A stretch of DNA of 61,930 nucleotides, taken from the IMG/VR virus record IMGVR_UViG_3300020045_006659, positions 1-61,930 of that record. The stretch is one strand, 5' to 3'. The DNA is from a virus (lineage: Duplodnaviria; Caudoviricetes). Position 1 is the first letter of the stretch; each line of letters begins with the position of its first letter. This document shows, one piece after another, positions 1 to 61,542 of the stretch. The notes beneath the pieces are model-generated. The model was not told where the DNA came from and did no database searches. It saw nothing but the letters and a program-made list of their open reading frames with translations. Position numbers and translations under genes: made by a program.

Positions 1-673
1 GGGGGGTGGACTGACAGGGGAGTCGACCGGGCGTAGCGGTGGGGTGGCGATGCGTGGTACGGTGCGCGTGGGGCGTTGGGGTGGGGTGGGTGGGCGAGGT
101 CGGGCGCGGGGTGGGGGTGGGGGCTGGGGCGGGGTCGCGGTCGTGGTCGGGGTCGTACATAAAAGGAGAACTATGGCAACACGAATGAGCAGCAAGACAG
201 CAAGGCCGAAGACGTTGAACCGGGGCGCTGCGGATGAGCGCGAGATCGTCAAGGATTGGGCGAGGCGCTACGCCGTACGGTATCGCGGGGATCTGTCGGT
301 ACAGATCGTGCTTGGGGATTTGCTGACGTTCCTTGCCACGCGGACGGAGCGTAACAGCAAGCGCAAGGGCGGGATGGGGCGGAAGTAGAGCGTTACACGG
401 GAGGAGTATATGGAATCCGAGAGATTATGTGATGTACCAGCGCAGCCAACATTGCGTTGCCCTAAATGTAAACAGCCACTCCCGAAGGCTGGGGATGTTG
501 TTTTTACGAAAGGCAAAAAAGTAATGCTGCGTATCGACCGCCTAGTTTGTGAGCCGTGCGCACTAAAGGCAGCTCCACCCGTTGCTCCCGTAGCGCGAAG
601 ACGCAAGGGGGAGCACAGCAAGGATCAGGAAACATTCCTTGGTCCAGATTGCCCGGTAATTCGGCTATGACCC
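1..673. repeat. Left copy of 673-bp terminal inverted repeat
   Basis: Reverse complement of 61258..61930. One mismatch noticed (129 G vs T). Identity ends at ...ctatgaccc. Confidence 0.97.
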
Positions 674-10189: not shown

Positions 10190-12088
10190 CTAGGACTCTT
10201 TTACAACGAGCCTCGGTGGTTCTTGTCCCGATGCTTTTCTTCCGGCTGAACTGGTATTCATACCTAGATTCATGTTCTGTTGCATCTGCAATCGTTCCGG
10301 AATTGTCCCAGCAGGTGCTTCTCCAACATTCGGAATGCTTAGCTTTTCTAGGAGCGTCCAAATGTCACACCAGCCAGCCCGTGCCAGTTGAAGGTACTTC
10401 ATCTGCTCGTCAATCTGCGAAGACACAAGCTGCGATCCAGGGGCAACATGGTAGGTGAACTGCCGCATGACTTCCCGCGCACGCTCGTAGCGTGGCAGTG
10501 GGCCACGCATCAGTGCATCGGCAGTTGGGATACCGCGCTCATCGTAGTCGTTGTTATGCACAAACGCCGGGATCATTGACCCTGGGTCAAAATCGAAGTC
10601 CTCAAAGGTCGCCCCGCTTGACCCAAGAATCTGAATGCGCTTCGGTAAGGAATAGAACTGCGCGAAGTTGTAGGCGGTTATCATGCCAAACTCGCGCATG
10701 AACGCTTCGATGGCCCTGGAGCGTCCGCGTACAATCGGCGTCATTGACTCGCCAATTTTCTCAATTGTGCTAGCCGATGGAATCTGTTGGAGCCGCATCA
10801 TCTGGCTCATGTCGCGCACGCCAGAGAGGTTGTCCATGGCGTCTTTGTAGAGTTCGATGGAACGGAACACCGCATCCGGCAACGCAGGCGGGTAGCTGAT
10901 CTGAATGCCCTTCCCCATGGCAGGGTTTTGCTGGAGCTTAAGCCCAGCCTTGCGGGTATCAATCTTATCCATCGCGTGCCGCGACGTGGAGTTCTTGTCT
11001 GCGATCAGATCCGGCCGCGCCAACTTCTCCATGTAGTCTTCGAGGACACGCAAAGACTTATCCAGTGACCGCTGAAGCGGAATGAGATCCCAAAGCGGAG
11101 CCTTGCCAAGCCACGTCCAGGGCCACGGGTCCAGCGACAGCTTGCAATAAGGGAACAGTCCGTGCCAGTAGATCGACGGTCCATCGTAGAGGATTACACT
11201 TTTCGTGAAGACGATACAGCGCTTACGGGGGTAAAGGAGATCCCCCTTCTTGACGATGTAAGACCAGTTGTTAGCAGGCTCACCGGCTTCCGTTTGCTCT
11301 CCCATGACGCGCGGAATGTTGCTCTCATGGCGGCGGTCATCATCCACGTACATCGTGTACACGTCTGCCGTGGGGATGCGCGGCATGTCCCGCGATGGTT
11401 GGTCCTCCCCGAACAAACGGCGGCGGAACGGCGAAGACATCTGTTCCAGAATCTTGCCGGCGCGGGTATTTTTCAGTGACGTTACATTGCCGTCCCGATC
11501 AGGGGATACGCGATCCGCCTTGTGGCCATAGCGGGAGCGGAGATAGTTGATTGTCCGCATCCTGCGGGCAACCACCCCCATCGCATCCTGGACGGTGTGC
11601 ATGGAGTTCGGGCGGATCGGAAGTACGTCGCGCGGATCTTCGGAGCTGATATCCAGGTCATCCCATGATTCGTTGTAGAACGGGTGAACCCAGCCAGTTC
11701 CGCCAACTAGGTAATACTTTACGGCCTCGCTGAACTTCATGTCGATGCCGCGCTGCGTGTACCAAGCGCTTGATAGCTTCCCGAAGATTTCCGCGCTTTG
11801 CTCGAAGCGCTTATTGTAGGTCTTGAACTCCCAGAACGGCTTTACATCCGTCAGCAGGGCCGCTTGATCGTTGGCAATCTTTCCGAAGTGGTTGCTGGAT
11901 GTGGTTGATAGGGTTGAAGATTTAAGGGTTTCGTTCTTCCCCATGATAGTCTTGATCGACGTGTCAATCTTGTCGAATCCATCTTGGGACCGCACATACC
12001 CATCCCCTTCCTCGACGGCTTCCAGGCACCATCCAAGCGTGCGGAACTCACTGTCGTTCGGGTAAGCCGGGATGGGAGGGGCGCTCAT
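10190..12088 (-). CDS. Portal protein (podovirus/P22-like)
   Basis: 632 aa; Y.L.GGTGW, DPR.V.P, LYDGPS.YWHG.FPY, LIPLQ..L, .LSGV.D and .FY...KRIQI.G portal patterns. Confidence 0.85.
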   Translation of the reverse strand: MSAPPIPAYPNDSEFRTLGWCLEAVEEGDGYVRSQDGFDKIDTSIKTIMGKNETLKSSTLSTTSSNHFGKIANDQAALLTDVKPFWEFKTYNKRFEQSAEIFGKLSSAWYTQRGIDMKFSEAVKYYLVGGTGWVHPFYNESWDDLDISSEDPRDVLPIRPNSMHTVQDAMGVVARRMRTINYLRSRYGHKADRVSPDRDGNVTSLKNTRAGKILEQMSSPFRRRLFGEDQPSRDMPRIPTADVYTMYVDDDRRHESNIPRVMGEQTEAGEPANNWSYIVKKGDLLYPRKRCIVFTKSVILYDGPSIYWHGLFPYCKLSLDPWPWTWLGKAPLWDLIPLQRSLDKSLRVLEDYMEKLARPDLIADKNSTSRHAMDKIDTRKAGLKLQQNPAMGKGIQISYPPALPDAVFRSIELYKDAMDNLSGVRDMSQMMRLQQIPSASTIEKIGESMTPIVRGRSRAIEAFMREFGMITAYNFAQFYSLPKRIQILGSSGATFEDFDFDPGSMIPAFVHNNDYDERGIPTADALMRGPLPRYERAREVMRQFTYHVAPGSQLVSSQIDEQMKYLQLARAGWCDIWTLLEKLSIPNVGEAPAGTIPERLQMQQNMNLGMNTSSAGRKASGQEPPRLVVKES

Positions 12089-12915: not shown

Positions 12916-12984
12916 AAGATACACGGAAAGGCAATACGAATACAAGGGGTAGTGGTTGTTTGGTAATACCACTACAGGTTGTGG
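12916..12984 (-). promoter_or_regulatory. Promoter of the portal operon with two NrdR-like boxes
   Basis: TTGTAT-18-TATCTT with extended TG; boxes at 12940..12955 and 12969..12984 (CCACTACAGGTTGTGG). Confidence 0.55.
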
Positions 12985-15582
12985 TTACTGAGGCGGAGGA
13001 GGAATCGGAAGCATACCGAAGGCTTCTTGGAAGGACTGTAATGGAGTTGGCACTTCTCCAAACAGACTTTCCCCTCCCATGGCAAATTGAGCATCCTGCG
13101 AATACTGATGGACTGCCTGCCGTAGCTGCGTCATCGGCATTTTCTGAAGCGCCTTGGCCATAGACACCACGTCAGGAGGGTATTGCTCCCCGCCAAATAA
13201 CCCGTTTTGCTTTACAAAATCATCAAGCGTCTTGGCGTTATGAAGTTTGGCCTGTTCAAGCAAGTCGAGTGAGTCTTGAATCTTGGGCGTTAAATTCCAT
13301 TCCGGGTATCCTTCTACCCGTGCCAGTGGCGCGGCAATGTGCTCCAGCCTGTTTCGTACTAATGCTGGCATACGATCCATTTGCGCTGGATCTCTGAAGA
13401 ACCGTCCCACTAGCAGCTTGGAAATTCGCTCTCGTCCTGCATCCGTCAACGCATCACCGGAAGCATATCCGGCGCGTTCCTGTGGTGTGATAACGCCATC
13501 TGCGATCAGACGATTAAGAACTTCTGCCCCAGGCTTCCCATTGAGAATGTCTGATAGCGTAGATGCTCCACCCTCCGCCTCCAATCGCGCCGCCACATGA
13601 TCGAGTGTTCCTTGGGAAACACGTCTGGAATCAGCGATAGAACGTTCAGCGGGGCGTAACGATGCTGTCCCGGTTTTGTTTAAGTCAGTGATGGAAGCCT
13701 GCGCCTTGGAGGAATTGGCAACCGCTTCATCCGCTACTTCCCGAACCAAAACAGGTTGCTTCATTAACCTAACTTGCTTGGGGTCAATGCCGAATTGTGC
13801 GGCCTTCTGTTCCAGAAGTGACTTGTACTCCTCAGCTCCCTTGGGATGATATTTGTACACTCTCTGCAACATCATGCCCCTGCCATTACCCCCTAGCGCA
13901 TTGCCTGCGCTGTCAATAACTACAGGGCCATTCGTGGCATCTGGATTGTCCGTAATGTGGTAACGTGAATCCCAGAACTCCGGGGAAGCATTATTCAGCA
14001 CCTTGGCTTGGTTGTCAGGGTTACGATAGTCCCGATCATTCACCAAAGTATAGTGGGGGTTCTTTTGGAACGTGATCCCACTATGCGACGTTTGAATATC
14101 GTCTAGTTCACGTAACGCATACTTGGCGGGGAGGGAAGTTTTTTCTCCGGGGATTTTGACGCTTGTTGTCGCGCCAATTGTTGGCGCTTCTGTTCCAGTC
14201 GGTCTTTGAATCGGCGAACTTGCTCCGCTTTGTCCTGCTTGTGCTGTGGATTGTTCAACATTGGTTGCTCCTGCCCCCGTACTAGGGGGCGTTACTTTTG
14301 GGCCAGTACCACCAGCAGGAGGCGGGGTCATCCCCATCTCGGCGGCCAAGTGCTTTCTGAATTCCTCGAAGGATCGGCTACGCGATCCGCTCTGTGGACG
14401 ATAACCTAGCTTCCGCTGTACCGTAGCCAATTCATCATCAGTCATCTTCAGCACGTCTGCTGCCGTTTTATTCCCGCCTGCTGAACTTTTCAGGAAATTG
14501 GCAATCTTAGTGTCTTTCGCTAAGGCTTCGGAATGTCCGATGTCTGCCTGCTTAGTATAGTGCTCTCGGCGGTGTTCTGGTACATGGCCTGGAGCTTGCG
14601 GAACAGGGCCATAACCAGCAGTAGAAGAGGGCGAAGACGCTGCGGGGGGAGTAGCCGCTGGAGCAGCCGACTGACCGGGAGGCGGCGGCATCTGTTTAGC
14701 ATAAAGGGAATCCACAGCCTGAGCTGATTTAGGGTCAAGAGATGCGTACTTCCCCTTCCCTAAGCTCTTGGCGATCTCGTCTTTGGTAAAGATTTGCGGG
14801 CCTACTTCGGCGGTTGCTCCAGACGCTCCCGGTGGAGGCGGTGGCCAAGGAGAATGAGTCAATGCCCCAGCAGCACGCGGCGGAGCCATCGGTACATTCA
14901 CCGTACCGCTAATCTTAAAATAATCACTTGGTTTCGATTGCGGAGGGGGCGGAACAGTTGCCTTTCGTCCTGCCGTAGCCGTGCTGGATGCAGGATCAAA
15001 TTTAGGAGCCGGAGTGGTAGCGGTAGACTTACCCGCCCGTTCCCCTAGCAGTTTTCTGAACCATCCCGTTCCATGTTCCTGCATGGCTTCGGCGATTTCA
15101 GGAGATAGCTTAGTCCCAACGGCGATAGATGTTGCGAATCCAAGCGGATGCGCGATATAGGCGGGAAGCCCAATTTTCCCCGCTGCCCAATCAACGGCTG
15201 CGCCAGATCCAACAGTGGCCGCAAGGTTACGGGCACGCTGCGCTAACGTACCAATTGCCGCCCCAGCGGGAACCGCCAACCCAGCGCCTTCATCTGGTAG
15301 GTACTCCGCAATATCACCAATGCCAGTAGCAATCTTGCCAAGCGTGCTATCAGGGCCTACCGTCTCAGCAAAGGACTTATGCGGCCCCGCTGACGGAACT
15401 CCCCATGGCGCTTTCGTGGGAGTTTCAATGACATTTGGCCGCGCTACTGGCGCTGGCGAAAAGTCATCGTAACTGCCGGGATGCTTCGCTTGGATTTTCA
15501 GGCCAAGCTCATCATCGGGGATGTCGGCGTATTCAGGGTACTTAGATTTAACCTGTCGCCCAAGATCAGCTACTGTAGGCAT
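12985..15582 (-). CDS. Ejected/polyvalent protein with DdrB-like ParB domain
   Basis: N-terminal KYPEYADI.D.EL ejection-protein motif; KY.L.ELDD...SH, DRDY, GP.VI...G..LGGNGR and MK.PVLVR. Confidence 0.8.
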   Translation of the reverse strand: MPTVADLGRQVKSKYPEYADIPDDELGLKIQAKHPGSYDDFSPAPVARPNVIETPTKAPWGVPSAGPHKSFAETVGPDSTLGKIATGIGDIAEYLPDEGAGLAVPAGAAIGTLAQRARNLAATVGSGAAVDWAAGKIGLPAYIAHPLGFATSIAVGTKLSPEIAEAMQEHGTGWFRKLLGERAGKSTATTPAPKFDPASSTATAGRKATVPPPPQSKPSDYFKISGTVNVPMAPPRAAGALTHSPWPPPPPGASGATAEVGPQIFTKDEIAKSLGKGKYASLDPKSAQAVDSLYAKQMPPPPGQSAAPAATPPAASSPSSTAGYGPVPQAPGHVPEHRREHYTKQADIGHSEALAKDTKIANFLKSSAGGNKTAADVLKMTDDELATVQRKLGYRPQSGSRSRSFEEFRKHLAAEMGMTPPPAGGTGPKVTPPSTGAGATNVEQSTAQAGQSGASSPIQRPTGTEAPTIGATTSVKIPGEKTSLPAKYALRELDDIQTSHSGITFQKNPHYTLVNDRDYRNPDNQAKVLNNASPEFWDSRYHITDNPDATNGPVVIDSAGNALGGNGRGMMLQRVYKYHPKGAEEYKSLLEQKAAQFGIDPKQVRLMKQPVLVREVADEAVANSSKAQASITDLNKTGTASLRPAERSIADSRRVSQGTLDHVAARLEAEGGASTLSDILNGKPGAEVLNRLIADGVITPQERAGYASGDALTDAGRERISKLLVGRFFRDPAQMDRMPALVRNRLEHIAAPLARVEGYPEWNLTPKIQDSLDLLEQAKLHNAKTLDDFVKQNGLFGGEQYPPDVVSMAKALQKMPMTQLRQAVHQYSQDAQFAMGGESLFGEVPTPLQSFQEAFGMLPIPPPPQ

Positions 15583-26753: not shown

Positions 26754-27986
26754 TCAGATTAACAGCGCATGGGACTGAATGAAGCGCGCATCCGCAAAAG
26801 GTGCGAATTGCATAGACGGTGCGTAACTAACTGACTCTTGAAAAACTTCATCGTCTTGCCGTTCCAGTTCGCCAATCTGCCAGAGTGCGCCCTTTTCCAT
26901 GCGGTCGGCTAAGTTCAGATCGTAGTACGGATTCGGGTCATCGACGGACGGCCCCGGCCACTTTGCCGCCATGCTCAACGCGAGATCCATTACCACATCA
27001 CCGCGAATAAATCGTGGCAAGACGGCTCCCGGTTCGTTCAGGTCTTGGCAGCGCGCCTCGTACAAGAATGGGTAGCAGTAGTTGCTGTAGTTTTGCGGCC
27101 AAATCTCATAGCGCGGCATCCCCGGCGAGTTGGTAACGCTGGTGCGGATGATCCAAGTATCCCCGACAACGTAGGTTTGTCCAGTAGGGAAGTAGATGGA
27201 AACGCCATCCTGTAACGCTTGCGCCGCTCCGCCTGAATCTGTCGTAACGCCTGTAGTAAAGCCTTCTGCGTTCTTTTCCCATTTGAAAACAGCAGTTCCG
27301 CTTGCTCCGCCTGTTGTAATCTGGACCGTGAAAATCGCATTGGCTGGACCCGTGTAGCTCGACGAATCCGATACCGATGGGCTATCGCCACTACCGATAA
27401 TCTGGATCGGAGCCTGCACGGTTCCAGTGGAGTCTTGCGAGTAGTCGTAGTTCGCCAACAAATAGGACTGCCCGGTATTCGCCCGCTGTGCGTCAACGGA
27501 GTTCAGTTCCCCTTGGCTGACATTCAACATCAACTGCCAGTTGTAGTTAGGGTCCCAAACGCTTATCAACTGATGGAAGTCATCAGGCGGCGGGGTGACG
27601 TAACACAGAAAAATCTTGTAGGTAACGGCGCTGGCATCCGCGCCACCATACGGGAACTGCAATTGGAGGCTGGTGGCGGAATCCACCTGTGCAATCGTGT
27701 AGATCGGCGTATTCAATCCAATCCTGAATTGCCGCCCAACCATCGCTTGCGTCCAGGTTGTTCCGCTCCCTGTCACTGTTGCGCTGCTTTGCGTGACAGT
27801 AACGGTGCCCGTAGTATAAGCAGCAGGAATGATGAACTGATTGTATTTGACAAGCCAAGACCATCGACGCTTCTCAGCAATGCGCCGAAAAGCGTCGATG
27901 ACAAAGCGTTGCGATAAGAGAGGCCCAGCAGCGGGGCAGAGTGTATTCACCCTACCCCAAAGCTGTGCAAACGAGTCCACGCCCAA
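26754..27986 (-). CDS. Head-tail adaptor / tail tubular protein A-like with beta insertions
   Basis: R.W.WL, YTTGTV.VT..S.TVTGSGTTW and E.WP motifs; downstream of capsid genes. Confidence 0.65.
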   Translation of the reverse strand: MGVDSFAQLWGRVNTLCPAAGPLLSQRFVIDAFRRIAEKRRWSWLVKYNQFIIPAAYTTGTVTVTQSSATVTGSGTTWTQAMVGRQFRIGLNTPIYTIAQVDSATSLQLQFPYGGADASAVTYKIFLCYVTPPPDDFHQLISVWDPNYNWQLMLNVSQGELNSVDAQRANTGQSYLLANYDYSQDSTGTVQAPIQIIGSGDSPSVSDSSSYTGPANAIFTVQITTGGASGTAVFKWEKNAEGFTTGVTTDSGGAAQALQDGVSIYFPTGQTYVVGDTWIIRTSVTNSPGMPRYEIWPQNYSNYCYPFLYEARCQDLNEPGAVLPRFIRGDVVMDLALSMAAKWPGPSVDDPNPYYDLNLADRMEKGALWQIGELERQDDEVFQESVSYAPSMQFAPFADARFIQSHALLI

Positions 27987-28821: not shown

Positions 28822-29928
28822 TTACCCGGTGATCCCGTACAACTGCTGGTGATACCGCGGTGCCCACGTTGCGGCACCCATGAACAACACCTGGCCGGCC
28901 ACCTTGGTATTGCCCTGTGCGGGTTTGAACCCGGTGAAGCCATACCCGAATTCGGGGTCGTCGGTGATGTAGAAGTTCATATACGGCTTCTTGCCGTTGA
29001 TCCAGAACAGGGTTTCCTTGTAGTTGCCTGCGCTTGGGTATCCGCCGCTAGGAACCGGATATGCGGTCAATGCGTTGCCCGACATGGTTTTGATAAACTG
29101 AACAGCGTTCGGGTCAGCGGTGCCACTGGAGCCGAACAGGTACGCGCCAGGAGCGTAACGGGACCGGATCAGCGTCGCGGAATTGAACTTCATCCCGTTG
29201 AATCCGATCTTGGGGTCCTGGGTGTCGTTGAACCGCTGCTGGGTCTGGAACTTCTCTTTGATGAACGAGTACCCGAAGGCAGTCGTCACACCGAGGTTAG
29301 GTTCGATGTTGCCGAAGCAGGCATTGGAGTAGGTTTCTTCCAGCGTGTTGTACTGGATGGTCCCGTTCACGTTGGTCGGAGCCGAGTTCAGCGAAGTGCC
29401 CACCGCACCGCCACGGGTGATAGTCCCATAGGTGGAGTAAGTGTTGCCATCCCAAGATGCAGTGGAGTTGTCATTGAGTGCTTCCGGCAACCCATTGAAA
29501 TTCTTGGTGTAGTTGGCATTCTGCCCGTTCAAGTAGAAGCCGATTTCCGTGTACGCGCCCATCGTCTGATAGGCGTTTTCCATGCGGGATTCGACCAACC
29601 GGAAGATGGCATTCGGCCCCTTATTGAGAACCTGAATCTCTTCCTTCGTAAAGGTGATGTTCACTTCCATCTCCTTCACGTTGAACTGCAACTGTTGTTC
29701 GACCTGCGGCTCGGAAATGTCGAACTCTTGGCCTTGGGCTACAGGTCCACCAATCAGACCCCCATACCAGAAGTTCTCACCGATAAACCGCCCGCCAGTG
29801 AACGTCTCCCGCGCCGTCTGTTTTGCATACGCCGCCAGAGGACCCTCCTGGAAAATCATGTCAACGAGTTTCGGAGTCTCGCGGACATAGCGTTTAGTTG
29901 ATACTGTTAACTGATCTAATTCAGCCAT
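28822..29928 (-). CDS. Major capsid protein (HK97 fold)
   Basis: 368 aa; LVD.IF...P, F.GL..A, YG.ITR and Q.RF.......GF....F motifs; follows the scaffold gene. Confidence 0.9.
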   Translation of the reverse strand: MAELDQLTVSTKRYVRETPKLVDMIFQEGPLAAYAKQTARETFTGGRFIGENFWYGGLIGGPVAQGQEFDISEPQVEQQLQFNVKEMEVNITFTKEEIQVLNKGPNAIFRLVESRMENAYQTMGAYTEIGFYLNGQNANYTKNFNGLPEALNDNSTASWDGNTYSTYGTITRGGAVGTSLNSAPTNVNGTIQYNTLEETYSNACFGNIEPNLGVTTAFGYSFIKEKFQTQQRFNDTQDPKIGFNGMKFNSATLIRSRYAPGAYLFGSSGTADPNAVQFIKTMSGNALTAYPVPSGGYPSAGNYKETLFWINGKKPYMNFYITDDPEFGYGFTGFKPAQGNTKVAGQVLFMGAATWAPRYHQQLYGITG

Positions 29929-29957: not shown

Positions 29958-30758
29958 TTAACTTGCCTTGGCGTCAGCGTTGTAGTTGTTCCAGCCTTCG
30001 AGGAATGCGTCACGCGATACCCGCTCCTGCTGCATTTCGTTAAGCGGTGCGTCCGGGGCCTTGCGGTCAAATACCAAATGAGACTCGCGTGGGCCGGATT
30101 CGACAGGAAGATGATTCTTGCTCATGGCGTCCTTGTAGCCTTCTTCGCGGGCCGCCTTGAGTTTCGATTCAAACTCCTGATTCCGTTGCTCTTCTAGCTT
30201 CGGAGCCACATAATCCTTGTAGGCTTGACGCAGCGGAAGCCCAGACTTGAGCGCATACGCCTCAAGTGCATCCAGGTCCACCGGCTCCTTGAACCGCTGA
30301 ACGTGATCCACGGTGATGTAGGCTAAGTCCTTTGACAGCCCCACATACGCCTGATCCTTCTGCTGCAACATCTGCATCACTTCGTCCTTGGTTAGCCCGG
30401 TGGAGGCAGCAGCCTGCCGAACTTCGGCTCCCGATTGGATCGGCCCATACAGAGATTGGTATTGCTGCAACGCATCCTGCGCCTGCCGGTAAGTGTCAAA
30501 AGCGGGCTTGGCTTGGTTGTTGTACCAGTCATCGTACTGCCTGACCTTTTGCTCTGCGGCGGTCGCCTTCGTCTCCCACTCGCCCTTGATTCGGTCTACG
30601 GTCGAGTGGTGCTGGGGCGTCTCCACAAAGCCATTGCGGAATGCCTGTTGAATTGAGTCGTCTCCCAGAGCTTCCAGGATCGCCCGTGCCTTGTCGTTGC
30701 CGTCAAGGTTGGCTTTCTTGAATAACTCCTGAGCGTAAGTCTTTAAGTCACTTGCCAT
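29958..30758 (-). CDS. Capsid scaffolding protein
   Basis: Helical, charged, immediately upstream of the MCP. Confidence 0.75.
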   Translation of the reverse strand: MASDLKTYAQELFKKANLDGNDKARAILEALGDDSIQQAFRNGFVETPQHHSTVDRIKGEWETKATAAEQKVRQYDDWYNNQAKPAFDTYRQAQDALQQYQSLYGPIQSGAEVRQAAASTGLTKDEVMQMLQQKDQAYVGLSKDLAYITVDHVQRFKEPVDLDALEAYALKSGLPLRQAYKDYVAPKLEEQRNQEFESKLKAAREEGYKDAMSKNHLPVESGPRESHLVFDRKAPDAPLNEMQQERVSRDAFLEGWNNYNADAKAS

Positions 30759-30824
30759 TTTGGTTTCCTTCCCCAGCCCCCTGCCTTGTAGCCCAGAAGC
30801 CTGGAATCGCCATCAACTACAAAC

Positions 30825-31199
30825 TCATTGCGGCATCGGAGCGCCCTGCGGAGGGGGAGGGGGAGCCATGCCACCTCCCTGTGGCGGCGCTGCTGCCGGA
30901 ACTTGTGTCGGATTCCCGCCCGTAAGGGCTTGTGGAACCGCTTGTCTAATAAATGCAATAACTTGGCCTAATGGCTGCTCCAATGAAGGAATGCCCTGTG
31001 CCAAGATTTGTGCTCCCTGCTCCAGCATTTTCATGCCTTGGAGCATCATGATTTGTGGATTGCCAGCTTCCGCGCCAAGTCCCATCTGTTGCCTGTCCAT
31101 CAACGACATAGGCCGCCCTTCTCTCCCGGAGGGAGGCGGTGGACCGTCCAATTGTGGACGCCCGCCTTGGGTTTCTGTGGGACCGGCGAATTGAGCCAT
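30825..31199 (-). CDS. P/Q/M/G-rich protein resembling portal C-terminal tails
   Basis: Low-complexity composition with a central helix. Confidence 0.6.
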   Translation of the reverse strand: MAQFAGPTETQGGRPQLDGPPPPSGREGRPMSLMDRQQMGLGAEAGNPQIMMLQGMKMLEQGAQILAQGIPSLEQPLGQVIAFIRQAVPQALTGGNPTQVPAAAPPQGGGMAPPPPPQGAPMPQ

Positions 31200-31310
31200 T
31201 TACTTCGCGGCTTTGCCAGCGATGGACTTCAACTGCTTACCGGGGCCAGCGGTAAACCCACCGCTATTTCCACCCTTCATCGGCTTCGGCGGCTTCATTC
31301 CCTTTTTCAT
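31200..31310 (-). CDS. Small basic K/G/P-rich peptide
   Basis: RBS aaggag; MKKGMKPPKPMKGG... Confidence 0.5.
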   Translation of the reverse strand: MKKGMKPPKPMKGGNSGGFTAGPGKQLKSIAGKAAK

Positions 31311-31535
31311 GTCAGTCTCCTTTTCCACGTGGAAATCCTATTTGATGCTTCTTCCGCTAGGCATTCCTACCTTGCGGGCCTTGCTAAGCAAAATCGCAAC
31401 ACGCTGCTTGGCGGCGCGAGCTGGGCCGAACTTCCTCGCAGTGCCGGAAAGGATCTTGGGAGGATTCTCCTTGATCTCATGACCAGCAGTTTCTAGCGCT
31501 TCTTCGGATGGTTTTTTTGATCGCCATTACATATA

Positions 31536-31588
31536 CCGCAAGATGTTGTGCCTAAAGTAAGTATGCACACTACATCTTGTGGTGTCAA
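31536..31588 (-). promoter_or_regulatory. Capsid-operon promoter with tandem NrdR-like boxes
   Basis: TTGACA-17-CATACT; boxes at 31536..31551 and 31567..31582, starts 31 bp apart. Confidence 0.7.
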
Positions 31589-40373: not shown

Positions 40374-41162
40374 TTAGTCCTTATTAGGCTGCGGATGCAG
40401 AGTAGAAAAATCTTCGGGAGTCGAGAAGTATGTATTCGCCTTTGTGAAGGCCTCGTTGAGGTGGGTTTTATAATCCTGTATAGACGGTACCGATTGCGCT
40501 AAATTAGGCAGTTGGCCACCTACATCAGTCTGGTTTAAAATCGGGACGACATCAGCCCCGTCATCGTACAACTTGGAGCTTATTTCATGAACGAGGCCCC
40601 ACGTTTTGGCTTCGGGTGCCGTCAAAACGGTGCGCTTAAGAATTGTGTCCTGAACTTCCGCTAAGGGCTTCCCTGAACAACCAGAGATTACTGCTGCGAT
40701 GCTGGCAACCTGCTGTTGCATTGACTTAAGTTGCTCACTCATTCCACCCTCATCCAAGTTTGCATTTGGGGCAAAAGTAAGAGTTATTCCGTGCAACAAA
40801 AATCGCCCTTCCGGAACCGAATACCGCTTGGAGCCAGCACAGTACATTACGGTCGCGATGGAATCTACTTCCCCGAAGTTATGGGTAACAACCTCAGCCG
40901 GAATACCTTTCAAATAGTGGTATGCGGATAATCCAGCAAAAACCGAACCGCCCGGAGAAGAGATCAAAAGAACAAACCGTTTAGTCCCGGTTTTGATTTT
41001 GGCGTCGACATTGGCGAGCAGTCGGGAAACCGTCTGCTCATTCACGCTTGCATAGAAACGTATGACAGTGGTCTTCGGCTCAGTCGTAGTAGCCCCAGGT
41101 GTCTGTGCTTGCAGGACTGAAGCAACTAATAGAACGATTGACCAATAACCCTTAAGCGTCAT
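40374..41162 (-). CDS. ClpP/S14-like peptidase with N-terminal signal peptide (IS passenger)
   Basis: ISSPGGSV, G.VDSIA, AG..RY, FLLH and L.A.EA...GLV. Confidence 0.8.
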   Translation of the reverse strand: MTLKGYWSIVLLVASVLQAQTPGATTTEPKTTVIRFYASVNEQTVSRLLANVDAKIKTGTKRFVLLISSPGGSVFAGLSAYHYLKGIPAEVVTHNFGEVDSIATVMYCAGSKRYSVPEGRFLLHGITLTFAPNANLDEGGMSEQLKSMQQQVASIAAVISGCSGKPLAEVQDTILKRTVLTAPEAKTWGLVHEISSKLYDDGADVVPILNQTDVGGQLPNLAQSVPSIQDYKTHLNEAFTKANTYFSTPEDFSTLHPQPNKD

Positions 41163-55976: not shown

Positions 55977-56354
55977 TCATCCCGCTTTCTCCTGCTCCCC
56001 GTGGTAGGCGATGAGTAATGCACACCAATTACAAGAGCAACGTTCACCATGCGGATTCTCTTTCATTAGTCGATCAAGAATCACCATCGCCTCTATATAC
56101 GCTTGGGCGAATGTGGGAACGTCGGTGCGGGCGGCTGCGATGAAATCTCCGTTGTCTTTCAGCGGTAGATTGGCACCGACGCCGCGCATTCGGGTGAGAG
56201 TACCTTCTTCGTCCTGTCCATCATCTGCGACCATCTCATGATTTGGCCCCCAAATGAACATCTGATAGTACTTGTCTAATATCCACGGCCCTTTCGTCGC
56301 CTTCTCCGCTCTCTGAATCGCGGCAAGAGCCTCGGCTTTAGTTGGCATCTTCAT
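55977..56354 (-). CDS. Ead/Ea22-like protein
   Basis: AEKAT.GPW and .FIAAARTDVP. Confidence 0.7.
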   Translation of the reverse strand: MKMPTKAEALAAIQRAEKATKGPWILDKYYQMFIWGPNHEMVADDGQDEEGTLTRMRGVGANLPLKDNGDFIAAARTDVPTFAQAYIEAMVILDRLMKENPHGERCSCNWCALLIAYHGEQEKAG

Positions 56355-59566: not shown

Positions 59567-59988
59567 TTACGTTTGTCCTTTACTCTGCGGGATAGTCCGC
59601 TGGCATAGTACCAGTCCATGAAGCCCTCAATGCTCGCCGTGAAGTCGATACCCGCTATCAGGGTTAAGGCTCCCTTGGCCCGTTCTGTCGCGTGCCAAGC
59701 GTGCTGCTGTGCCATCACCTTGCCGGTGCGACGCTTCCACTCGATGAACATGACTTCGGCGGCAGAAAGATGCAGAGCATTGACCCGCGTGTCATGCGCC
59801 AGAGGCTTACGCGGTGGCCCCATATAGCGGATATATAGATCATCCGCCATGCCTTTTTCTTGTACCCCCATGCCGCGAAGGTGTGGCAGGTCTGTGCGGA
59901 TCCGCCGCCAGTTATCGAGGGCCAAGAAGTCGCTGCACGTTTCCTGGATAACGCGCTCTTTCGGTTGCGGCTTGGAATCTCTAGGCAT
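59563..59988 (-). CDS. VRR-NUC-like nuclease
   Basis: E..IQ..C..FL, G..D, FIE.K...GK....Q..W. Confidence 0.75.
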   Translation of the reverse strand: MPRDSKPQPKERVIQETCSDFLALDNWRRIRTDLPHLRGMGVQEKGMADDLYIRYMGPPRKPLAHDTRVNALHLSAAEVMFIEWKRRTGKVMAQQHAWHATERAKGALTLIAGIDFTASIEGFMDWYYASGLSRRVKDKRK

Positions 59989-60963
59989 CGCGGCCTTCGG
60001 CTTTGGCGATCGCCCGGTTAATGCGATCATCCATGTTCTTAACGCCGCAATCACACAAATCCGCGTTGTCATTAGATCGGCATTCGTAAGAGTGATTCTC
60101 TCCTCCGTACCATACTGCCGCCTCCCTCAGTGCCGCCAGCAGTTCCGTACTAACCGCACGTTCGGCGTCGAGTTCACACAGCAACAGATCCCGATACTCA
60201 GGATTGCAGTCGATATCTTCCCTGATCTCTTGTTCTAACTCTGCCGTCATCGTGCGTGGTTTCATGCGCTCCTCTTTGGCGGTATCGTTCCGTTCGCAAT
60301 GCGCTTGATTACGGGCATCTGCGCCGTGGTCTGGCCGCTCCGCTTCGACATCTTGCTCTTGCGGTCGGACTTGTTAGCGGCCTTGATGCGGTCGAGGATG
60401 ACCAGATTTTTGAGTGACTCAGGCATTGGCCCTCCGGGAGTATTTACTAATTACTGAATAGTTGTCCCTGGCTCCCTTACGGTCCTTTCTGAAGTCCATC
60501 CCTAACCCGTAATAGAGGGCTTGGTCAGTGGCTAACGTAAGCCCGTTCATTGCATAAGCTATATCTTTCCCGCGCTCTACCGTAGCTGGCTGCTTCATAA
60601 GTTCATCCATAGATACCTCAAACTGCCTTACGCAGATAATCAGAGTTCCTAGCGCCTTGCGAACCTTGCGCTCCTCTTTTGTTAGCTTGCGTGGCTCACT
60701 CATGCTCTGTCCCTCGTTTCATCGCCCTGCACCGTCGATGGCGCTGGTTGTGCGGTTAAGTAAATCTCCATCGCACAGCCGAATTCTTCGAGAACTTTGG
60801 CAATGTCCATCAGCCATACATCCACGATTCCGCCGGATTCCCGCAGGTCATTCACGACGGCGTAGAAACGCTTACACAGGCCGGGATTAAGCCGCTCGCT
60901 GTGAAATTCCATGACGCCTAATCGGACGCGGCGGCGACTATCCATGGCGTTCCCTCGTTTCAA
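59981..60963 (-). CDS. Small hypothetical ORFs (59981..60265, 60419..60703, 60700..60963)
   Basis: ORFs in the same operon. Confidence 0.55.
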
Positions 60964-61264
60964 AGAAGCCCGCCAGATCCGGGTTGCGCTCCATGATGTA
61001 GCGGGCGTAGTAGGGCGGGTAGTGGTCGTTCAATTTGTAGTCATCGTTGCCGCGCTCAAACTTAAAAAACCATCGCATACGCTCCCAAATCATCCTGATC
61101 CCGAAATGATTAAAGCCACGTCCCTTGACCTCTGAAGTCAGCTCAACCAGCTTCTGGTACACCTCGGGATGCTCTGTGTGGAACCGCTCCCACGCCTTGT
61201 AGTGGCGCTCGTTGTGGACCTCGGAGAGCAGCTCGGACGGGAAGCGTAGGGTGGATTGGGTCAT
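60938..61264 (-). CDS. Conserved phage hypothetical protein
   Basis: FH..HP.VY, I.E..RW, YKLN..Y..YYAR..M...P....FFE.R; ATG overlaps the stop of the ITR ORF. Confidence 0.75.
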   Translation of the reverse strand: MTQSTLRFPSELLSEVHNERHYKAWERFHTEHPEVYQKLVELTSEVKGRGFNHFGIRMIWERMRWFFKFERGNDDYKLNDHYPPYYARYIMERNPDLAGFFETRERHG

Positions 61265-61521
61265 AGCCGAATTACCGGGCAATCTGGACCAAGGAATGTT
61301 TCCTGATCCTTGCTGTGCTCCCCCTTGCGTCTTCGCGCTACGGGAGCAACGGGTGGAGCTGCCTTTAGTGCGCACGGCTCACAAACTAGGCGGTCGATAC
61401 GCAGCATTACTTTTTTGCCTTTCGTAAAAACAACATCCCCAGCCTTCGGGAGTGGCTGTTTACATTTAGGGCAACGCAATGTTGGCTGCGCTGGTACATC
61501 ACATAATCTCTCGGATTCCAT
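61261..61521 (-). CDS. Small Zn-finger protein (duplicated at 410..670 +)
   Basis: CPKC...CEPC; RBS ggagga. Confidence 0.6.
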   Translation of the reverse strand: MESERLCDVPAQPTLRCPKCKQPLPKAGDVVFTKGKKVMLRIDRLVCEPCALKAAPPVAPVARRRKGEHSKDQETFLGPDCPVIRL

Positions 61522-61542
61522 ATACTCCTCCCGTGTAACGCT

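Follow-up and report, generated by a model that had tools for sequence, protein, structure and literature searches.

The locus described here raises the question of what controls the promoter of the virion-structural genes of a tailed virus (Duplodnaviria; Caudoviricetes), and whether two palindromic boxes lying on that promoter are operators for host NrdR, the nucleotide-sensing repressor. The DNA analysed, hereafter the window, is the complete IMG/VR virus record IMGVR_UViG_3300020045_006659, which measures 61,930 bp and carries inverted terminal repeats. One 93-codon frame with a CxxC...CxxC motif is found at both ends in opposite orientation, at 389-667 (plus strand) and 61264-61542 (minus strand), as fits the inverted terminal repeats reported by IMG/VR. 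The termini of the closest relative, the genome G001, are direct terminal repeats, not inverted. No cultured phage related at the DNA level was retrieved by megablast with the 8 kb around the site, and no tRNA genes were found in the window.

The core of the locus is a sigma-70-type promoter on the minus strand, made by TTGACA, a 17-nt spacer and CATACT. It matches at 10 of 12 hexamer positions, and is one of the 7 promoter-like sites reaching at least 10/12 in the whole window. Promoter and boxes are arranged as follows.

31583-31588, minus strand: -35 hexamer TTGACA of the late (capsid/tail) promoter, 6/6 match
31567-31582, no strand assigned: NrdR-type box 1, minus-strand reading CCACAAGATGTAGTGT, occupying 16 of the 17 spacer bases
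31560-31565, minus strand: -10 hexamer CATACT, 4/6 match, with the A at position 2 and the T at position 6 present
31536-31551, no strand assigned: NrdR-type box 2, minus-strand reading GCACAACATCTTGCGG, over about +2 to +17 of the predicted transcript

Read on the plus strand, box 1 is ACACTACATCTTGTGG (31567-31582) and box 2 is CCGCAAGATGTTGTGC (31536-31551). The start-to-start distance is 31 bp, hence the linker measures 15 bp. Both boxes overlap the promoter region, box 1 lying in the -35/-10 spacer and box 2 past the -10 hexamer, from which it is separated by an interval such that it begins 9 nt after it; the ATG at 31527 is found 8 bases past box 2. The two boxes may also be viewed as an inverted repeat with 16-nt arms, 88% complementary. 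The transcript start, at about 31552-31553, is inferred from the position of the -10 hexamer. A near-consensus TTGACA-17-CATACT promoter, a box filling almost its whole spacer and a second box 31 bp away over the transcript start had all been described in a first-pass annotation of this DNA. Each of these elements was recovered, the start being inferred as said; coordinates and strings were correct, and turned out to be plus-strand readings of a minus-strand promoter.

The boxed promoter heads an array of genes on the same (minus) strand, which extends from 31.5 kb down to about 5.7 kb. The array includes, in order, a small conserved gene, a 36-aa ORF, the 124-aa and 266-aa genes, the capsid gene, a 180-aa gene, a tail-fibre-like gene, large unmatched genes and the portal gene. 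The features relevant to the analysis are listed below.

31338-31527, minus strand: first operon gene, encoding a small conserved protein (ATG 31527-31525; 59-codon conserved frame)
31200-31310, minus strand: 36-aa ORF with a GGAG-type ribosome-binding site, called from sequence only
29958-31199, minus strand: 124-aa and 266-aa genes upstream of the capsid gene, kept beside it in relatives; no PHROG match
28822-29928, minus strand: major capsid protein gene, 368 aa (phrog_9953, E 1.8e-19)
26754-27986, minus strand: gene for a tail fibre-like protein, 410 aa, within this array (phrog_1980 plus 12 further families)
12940-12984, no strand assigned: degenerate box pair, minus-strand reading CCACAACCTGTAGTGG, 13-nt linker, CCACTACCCCTTGTAT, before 139-aa, 133-aa and portal genes; A/T at 4 of 8 positions in the second box
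10190-12088, minus strand: portal gene, 632 aa, farther down the array (P22_portal, 28.4 bits; 71% identity to the G001 portal)

The 124-aa and 266-aa genes are likely head-assembly genes; their function has not been shown. The major capsid protein resembles, at 27% identity, the major head protein of Tunturiibacter phages, whose hosts are Acidobacteriota. Genes on the opposite side of the promoter, all oriented rightward, encode a 441-aa DUF6745 protein, glycosyltransferases and methyltransferases. ERF and YqaJ recombination proteins and a ParB-like domain are also encoded in the window. An 865-aa protein with a ddrB-ParB domain sits in the structural array (12985-15582), and a ClpP-family protease-like protein adjoins the putative terminase (40374-41162).

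The first gene of the operon is interrupted in the record. Its ATG (31527) and the conserved body (31517-31338) lie in different frames, the latter in +1, the shift falling in a stretch of seven A residues at 31512-31518; six residues instead of seven would join the two. One A is missing at 31512 in all the covering contigs, which come from three DNA runs and two studies, and the frame is conserved (48-73% identity) in 11 viral or genome relatives, all featuring intact ORFs of 58-80 aa. The extra A probably reflects misassembly or a mutation in this strain; slippage along the run cannot be ruled out. The shares of the window covered by the sequencing runs do not exceed 0.14. Contigs of one metatranscriptome run cover parts of the capsid-operon genes; since such a library can hold DNA, and the contigs show no starts, nothing is concluded on expression or habitat.

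The rules for NrdR binding are set out in the available part of PMC13584703. Two 16-bp partially palindromic boxes are required, one box alone not being bound. The linker measures 15–16 bp, with 14–17 bp tolerated, which places about three helical turns between the box centres (for the spacer optimum see also the accessible portion of PMC12051234). According to the same partial text of PMC13584703, the conserved box positions are C4, A6, A8, T9, T11 and G13. Of these, C4 and G13, 8 bp apart, are critical to binding, and A6 and T11 matter; the central AT is predominant, and is dispensable when at least 63% of the residues between C4 and G13 are A/T. A synthetic consensus box was bound by both E. 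coli and S. coelicolor NrdR.

In the window, neither box lacks any of the six conserved positions, and the C4/G13, A6/T11, two-box and 15-bp-linker rules are all met. Each box has A/T at 6 of the 8 positions from 5 to 12, and the central AT. Box 1 matches the synthetic box at 14 of 16 positions and box 2 at 13 of 16, and both are nearer to consensus than the five native pairs given in the part of PMC13584703 that was available. The one feature not met is the canonical position upstream of a ribonucleotide reductase (RNR) operon, as the genes downstream encode capsid, tail and portal proteins. With structural genes downstream, and no RNR family found in the phage, the pair would be a non-canonical NrdR target. 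The proposal of the first-pass annotation, that the boxes are NrdR-type operators on a late promoter, is supported by every sequence-level test available. In the absence of binding or expression data, and with the host unknown, it seems rather probable, and no more than that, that the two boxes are host-NrdR operators on the sigma-70-type promoter of a virion-structural operon.

The significance of the match was assessed in several ways. By a crude score derived from the consensus given in the first-pass annotation, the two boxes are the only 16-mers scoring at least 17/22 in 61,930 bases. A looser rule (C4, A6, T11, G13 and at least 5/8 A/T) was dropped, a pair being found in 129 of 300 shuffles. 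Because that rule does not discriminate, a six-position rule was used instead, by which each box must carry C4, A6, A8, T9, T11 and G13 and the linker must measure 14–17 bp. Under this rule there is 1 pair in the window, at least one pair in only 4 of 500 dinucleotide-preserving shuffles, and 1 pair in 1.03 Mb of unrelated phage loci. The crude score detected a pair in 24 of 30 RNR loci, sampled from the phylum of a metagenome-assembled genome (MAG) with a related phage contig, versus 7 of 181 background loci, and therefore recognises real nrd promoters. The RNR set includes one locus without pair from an unpublished genome (L461 of G105), and the background count includes the genuine site of L441, a relative described below. 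The neighbourhood of the 441-aa DUF6745 gene was tried as a source of relatives and rejected. None of the 80 loci with a homologue shares the capsid operon, and they were kept as background only, yielding 1 chance-like pair in 792,391 bases. The box pair in the window is real, and not due to chance.

Box pairs were also found in relatives. G001 (locus L081), which measures 61,990 bp, encodes a capsid protein with 81% identity to that of the window. Its capsid promoter (56178-56225) is made by TTGAC(A), a box, the -10 hexamer TACCGT, 8 nt and a second box, the linker being 16 bp. The layout is the same as in the window, and bases differ at non-critical positions. A second pair (29571-29617) lies over TTGCAA-17-TAAGAT, directly before a gene encoding a 645-aa protein. 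The first 60 residues of the latter match the N-terminus of the product of a 381-aa gene in the structural array of the window, a pattern typical of modular tail fibres. A third pair (59946-59993) precedes 136-aa, 153-aa and portal genes. The start-to-start distances in the three pairs are 31, 32 and 32 bp. The string CACWANATNTWGTG has 5 exact occurrences in G001, and the chance expectation, by simple arithmetic, is about 0.24. The degenerate pair of the window (12940-12984) is homologous in position to the third, intact pair of G001; it fails both the linker rule and the A/T rule, and is therefore probably decayed.

The structural modules of the window and G001 are related (64–79% DNA identity) and differently arranged. 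Portal and tail genes form one long array with a single boxed promoter in the window, and split units, each with its own pair, in G001.

Among other relatives, a pair is present in L441 (72% identity), where it immediately precedes the ribosome-binding site of the gene that opens the capsid operon; its linker measures 15 bp. No pair was found in 79 of 80 contigs of metagenome relatives (423,551 bases; many contigs are short). Viral relatives of the capsid protein were found in 22 contigs, and 20 of the 21 more distant ones have no pair within 6 kb of the capsid gene (box score of at least 15). In L372, in which the capsid protein has 79% identity, TTGACA-16-TACATC is found at the homologous place, with a different palindrome and no NrdR pair. 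Conservation of the boxes at the capsid operons of related phages, which had been suggested as a check at the outset, holds for G001 and L441, and fails in L372 and in most relatives. The pairs are patchy among relatives, and travel with structural promoters, not with the DUF6745 gene.

Two additional features of the capsid region were noted in these contigs. In L372, a gene at 1200-1700 encoding an endonuclease VII-like, CxxC/HxxH-rich product lies between the first two genes of the capsid operon, and looks like a putative homing-endonuclease insertion. The capsid match is split in two parts, about 200–800 bp apart, in L095, L096, L101, L086, L089, L097-L099, L112 and L440, which suggests a possible intron or inserted element within the major capsid gene.

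IMG/VR was scanned with a strict pattern made by CACWANATNTWGTG, a fixed gap and CACWANATNTWG. Pairs spaced 31 bp were found in at least 118 contigs, and pairs spaced 32 bp in at least 120. The off-phase control spacing of 36 bp (a half turn) gave 9 contigs, several with the match in periodic repeat arrays. In the control contigs L240, L241, L242 and L247, NrdR-like boxes reside in periodic arrays in which the repeat recurs every 80 bp.

Flanking genes were sorted by taking the first ORF of at least 70 aa, with its start within 350 bp and pointing away from the site, at 80 loci of the 31-bp set and 79 loci of the 32-bp set among the matches listed. In the 31-bp set (90 ORFs among the matches listed, the two of G001 excluded) the Pfam families found were Terminase_6N (10), Terminase_6C (8), TerL_ATPase (1) and small terminase (1), along with ATP-cone (2), NRDD (1), integrase (2) and HNH (2). 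The 102 ORFs of the 32-bp set, again among the matches listed, include Phage_portal (6), SPP1_portal (5), Terminase_6N (6) and Terminase_6C (5), and other terminase, packaging and scaffold families with 1 match each; no RNR family is present among the 25 families listed for this set. The PHROG tally of the flanking ORFs agrees with the Pfam tally among the matches listed. A control made by 150 random other ORFs of the same loci gave no terminase among the best 25 of 56 families, and 3–4 portal-type matches. All flank tallies rest on crude ORF calls and on related contigs, which are not independent samples.

Among the matches listed, the flanking proteins fall into at least 5 BLAST-unrelated groups, the loci of the 32-bp set range from 26 to 70% GC, and the pairs lie from a few to about 200 bp from terminase or portal start codons. 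Two types of layout were observed. In the first, found also in the window, box 1 is in the spacer and box 2 at +1; in the second, the -35 hexamer is in the linker and box 2 in the spacer. In a portal lineage (L281, L258, L263, L287) the second box ends 8–10 nt before the portal ATG, and a TTGACT-like hexamer is found in the linker; with this arrangement the transcript may be leaderless or nearly so. Pairs are not found near terL in Pelagibacter phage Baldr and Vibrio phage KIT05, cultured relatives of one terminase cluster.

No match to NrdR over the cut-off was found in any of 79 viral records with pairs, among the matches listed. Weak NrdR matches occur in eight large records, six of them within ORFs of 400–800 aa, and these six are read as putative RNR ATP-cone domains. 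The window appears to be one instance of a wider phage pattern, of which no description was found. A broader proposition, which is tentative and could well prove wrong, is that unrelated tailed phages of AT-rich to GC-rich hosts have independently put host-NrdR operators on packaging and morphogenesis promoters. NrdR would then be a general host-supplied switch coupling virion production to replication and dNTP status, the sites also titrating NrdR and raising host dNTP synthesis, and the window would be one clear example.

The factor reading the boxes was sought in the phage. Neither the window nor G001 has a match to NrdR (TIGR00244), ATP-cone (PF03477), Ribonuc_red_lgC (PF02867) or NRDD (PF13597), and a bacterial NrdR used as phmmer query against the six-frame ORFs of both gave a best E value of 3.7. 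The statement of the first-pass annotation that the phage lacks nrd genes consequently holds for ATP-cone, the RNR large subunit and NrdD; the search left out the RNR small subunit. Sigma70_r2 and Sigma70_r4_2 were similarly unmatched in the window and G001, so that the absence of a late sigma factor, also claimed earlier, stands for these two domains. The companion claim on a Q-like antiterminator is only partly covered, as none was seen among the 50 ORFs scanned, without a family search. No sigma factor or RNA polymerase of its own was found among the same 50 ORFs; unannotated small ORFs remain, and the RNA_pol (PF00940) control was silent. In the absence of NrdR, ATP-cone, RNR large subunit, NrdD and sigma-70 domains in the phage, a host factor is the simplest reader of the boxes.

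Relatives of the capsid protein are encoded in two MAG contigs, assigned to Ca. Sulfotelmatobacter and Ca. Binatia. These relatives and the 27% identity to the Tunturiibacter head protein are the only hints to the host, and a phage contig binned in a MAG is weak evidence. The Ca. Sulfotelmatobacter MAG has NrdR, and so do, over the cut-off, 114 of 121 genomes of its phylum (unpublished genomes G105 and G130 included); nrdR is found in 77% of bacterial genomes according to the available part of PMC13584703. In the Ca. Sulfotelmatobacter MAG (G002), no pair was found near its own nrdJ and nrdR, in the loci fetched, nor on its related phage contig. Use of the strict tandem pattern as a host clue in the two MAGs was abandoned, as it gave only chance-like matches. 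None of the 121 genomes of the candidate phylum contains the strict pattern, which would also fail to match the E. coli boxes given in the accessible part of PMC13584703. Its absence from the 121 genomes indicates that native sites typically stray further from consensus than the phage ones do.

A mechanism can be outlined, which rests on inference alone for the binding of NrdR, for when and in which direction the promoter is regulated, for an nrdR gene in the host, and for relief by dNTP drain or titration. By analogy with published NrdR biochemistry, both boxes would be occupied by an NrdR tetramer carrying dATP and ATP, which would kink the DNA. Since the boxes cover the -35/-10 spacer (box 1) and the transcript start (box 2), the tetramer would, once bound, block host RNA polymerase. 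As long as dATP is plentiful the promoter would be held off; once dATP falls versus ATP, NrdR would shift to non-DNA-binding oligomers, and the promoter would fire. Alternatively, relief might come from the many copies of the phage genome, which would titrate the repressor. Either way, capsid, tail and portal proteins would be made in step with ongoing phage DNA replication, and no late regulator encoded by the phage would be needed. Infection by the lytic phage SpSL1 strongly induces the host NrdR regulon in S. pneumoniae, as reported in the available part of PMC6755750, a derepression which would fit the proposed late relief.

The boxes could bind host NrdR mainly as decoys. The multiplying genomes would soak up the few tetramers, derepress the host RNR genes and feed a phage which lacks RNR, late control being secondary. 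This is compatible with the main reading, and is unlikely as the chief role of the pair. It draws on the lack of RNR genes in the phage (for the families searched), on the three pairs of G001, and on sites nearer to consensus than native ones, the strict pattern having no occurrence in the 121 genomes from the candidate phylum. The rise of host NrdR regulons in lytic infection, documented in the portion of PMC6755750 available, points the same way. A decoy, however, could sit anywhere, whereas the pairs of the window and G001 lie exactly on core promoter elements of structural operons, and those of other phages lie close to the start codons of terminase or portal genes, from a few to about 200 bp away. 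Moreover, only one intact pair is present in the window.

That the palindromes are read by a phage DNA-binding protein, or by a host factor other than NrdR, is quite unlikely; the resemblance to NrdR boxes would in that case be coincidental or convergent. No ORF resembles NrdR, and the NrdR rules are matched at every position tested. The motif is found with 31–32 bp phasing in unrelated lineages, from 26 to 70% GC, and is depleted at 36 bp; the same motif and phasing in unrelated lineages make a universal host factor simpler than a shared phage gene. Room for another reader is nonetheless left by the many phage ORFs (most of them) without assigned function, and by the several small CxxC...CxxC proteins that the window and G001 each encode. 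The palindrome of L372, which differs at the same promoter, is what would be expected if each phage had its own regulator.

NrdR might also bind the boxes to keep the structural genes silent outside the lytic cycle, during lysogeny or in a carrier state, rather than set lytic timing. ERF, YqaJ and the ParB-like domain of the window are in keeping with this, as are the 7 of 79 viral records with pairs classed as proviruses and the 3 flanking ORFs matching a phage integrase family, both counted among the matches listed. Little weight is given to this possibility, since NrdR repression is leaky and tracks the growth state, and would make a poor lysogeny lock; the 50 window ORFs scanned yielded neither an integrase nor a CI-type repressor. 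Chance similarity without function, to which the 129 of 300 shuffles with pairs under the loose rule and the many relatives without sites might be taken to point, is hardly tenable, given pairs in only 4 of 500 shuffles under the six-position rule, the location exactly on a 10/12 promoter, and the further pairs of G001 and L441, which lie at structural promoters, homologous ones among them, and differ in non-critical bases.

Operators of host LexA occur in phage and prophage genomes, as in CTXphi and in Bacillus phage GIL01, which has gp7 as co-factor. The likeness to the present case, if the boxes are NrdR operators, is that phage promoters carry the sites of a global host repressor, and a physiological sensor of the host decides on expression. 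LexA senses DNA damage, and usually acts in a lysis-lysogeny switch; here the sensor would be that of dATP/ATP, and the targets would be morphogenesis genes. Late transcription of phage T4 is coupled to replication via the gp45 sliding clamp, gp33 and gp55, and late genes are, similarly, on only once phage replication runs. T4 makes use of its own sigma factor, co-activator and clamp, whereas no phage regulator was found here, and coupling would go through host nucleotide pools and a repressor.

The closest structural parallel is provided by bacterial RNR promoters (E. coli nrdAB, nrdHIEF and nrdDG; S. coelicolor nrdAB and nrdRJ), which, in the available parts of PMC13584703 and PMC12051234, share two 16-bp boxes, a 15–16 bp linker, the six positions and overlap with the core promoter. 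The phage pairs differ from these in their targets, which are virion-structural genes, with no RNR found in the phage. In S. pneumoniae infected by SpSL1, NrdR-controlled promoters likewise open in lytic growth; the NrdR sites precede host transcripts, and NrdR sites on phage promoters are not mentioned in the part of PMC6755750 available. Other links between phages and NrdR have been recorded. NrdR genes encoded by phages or viruses have been annotated (PMC8790148 and PMC5894146, both available in part), and a yeast two-hybrid match of Cp-1 orf6 with pneumococcal NrdR is given in Table 1 of PMC4840434, a source likewise available in part. No description of NrdR boxes at phage structural or late promoters was found in the full-text literature, in agreement with the first-pass annotation, which knew of no such late-control mechanism. 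The search did not cover the 2005 comparative-genomics paper on NrdR boxes, other subscription papers or supplements, and prophage sites may be among the roughly 60,000 NrdR motifs on which PMC13584703 draws.

How virion genes are delayed in phages having no sigma factor, polymerase or antiterminator of their own is unknown for most uncultured phages. Were the reading of the boxes as host-NrdR operators true, a late switch made by host-repressor operators alone would be a minimal timing device, linking capsid output to the nucleotide economy of the cell. The NrdR regulon, so far seen as almost purely RNR-specific, would extend to phage morphogenesis genes, and nrdR mutants, hydroxyurea and dNTP imbalance should shift late-gene timing and burst size. 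Box pairs could, in addition, mark late promoters in metagenomic phages.
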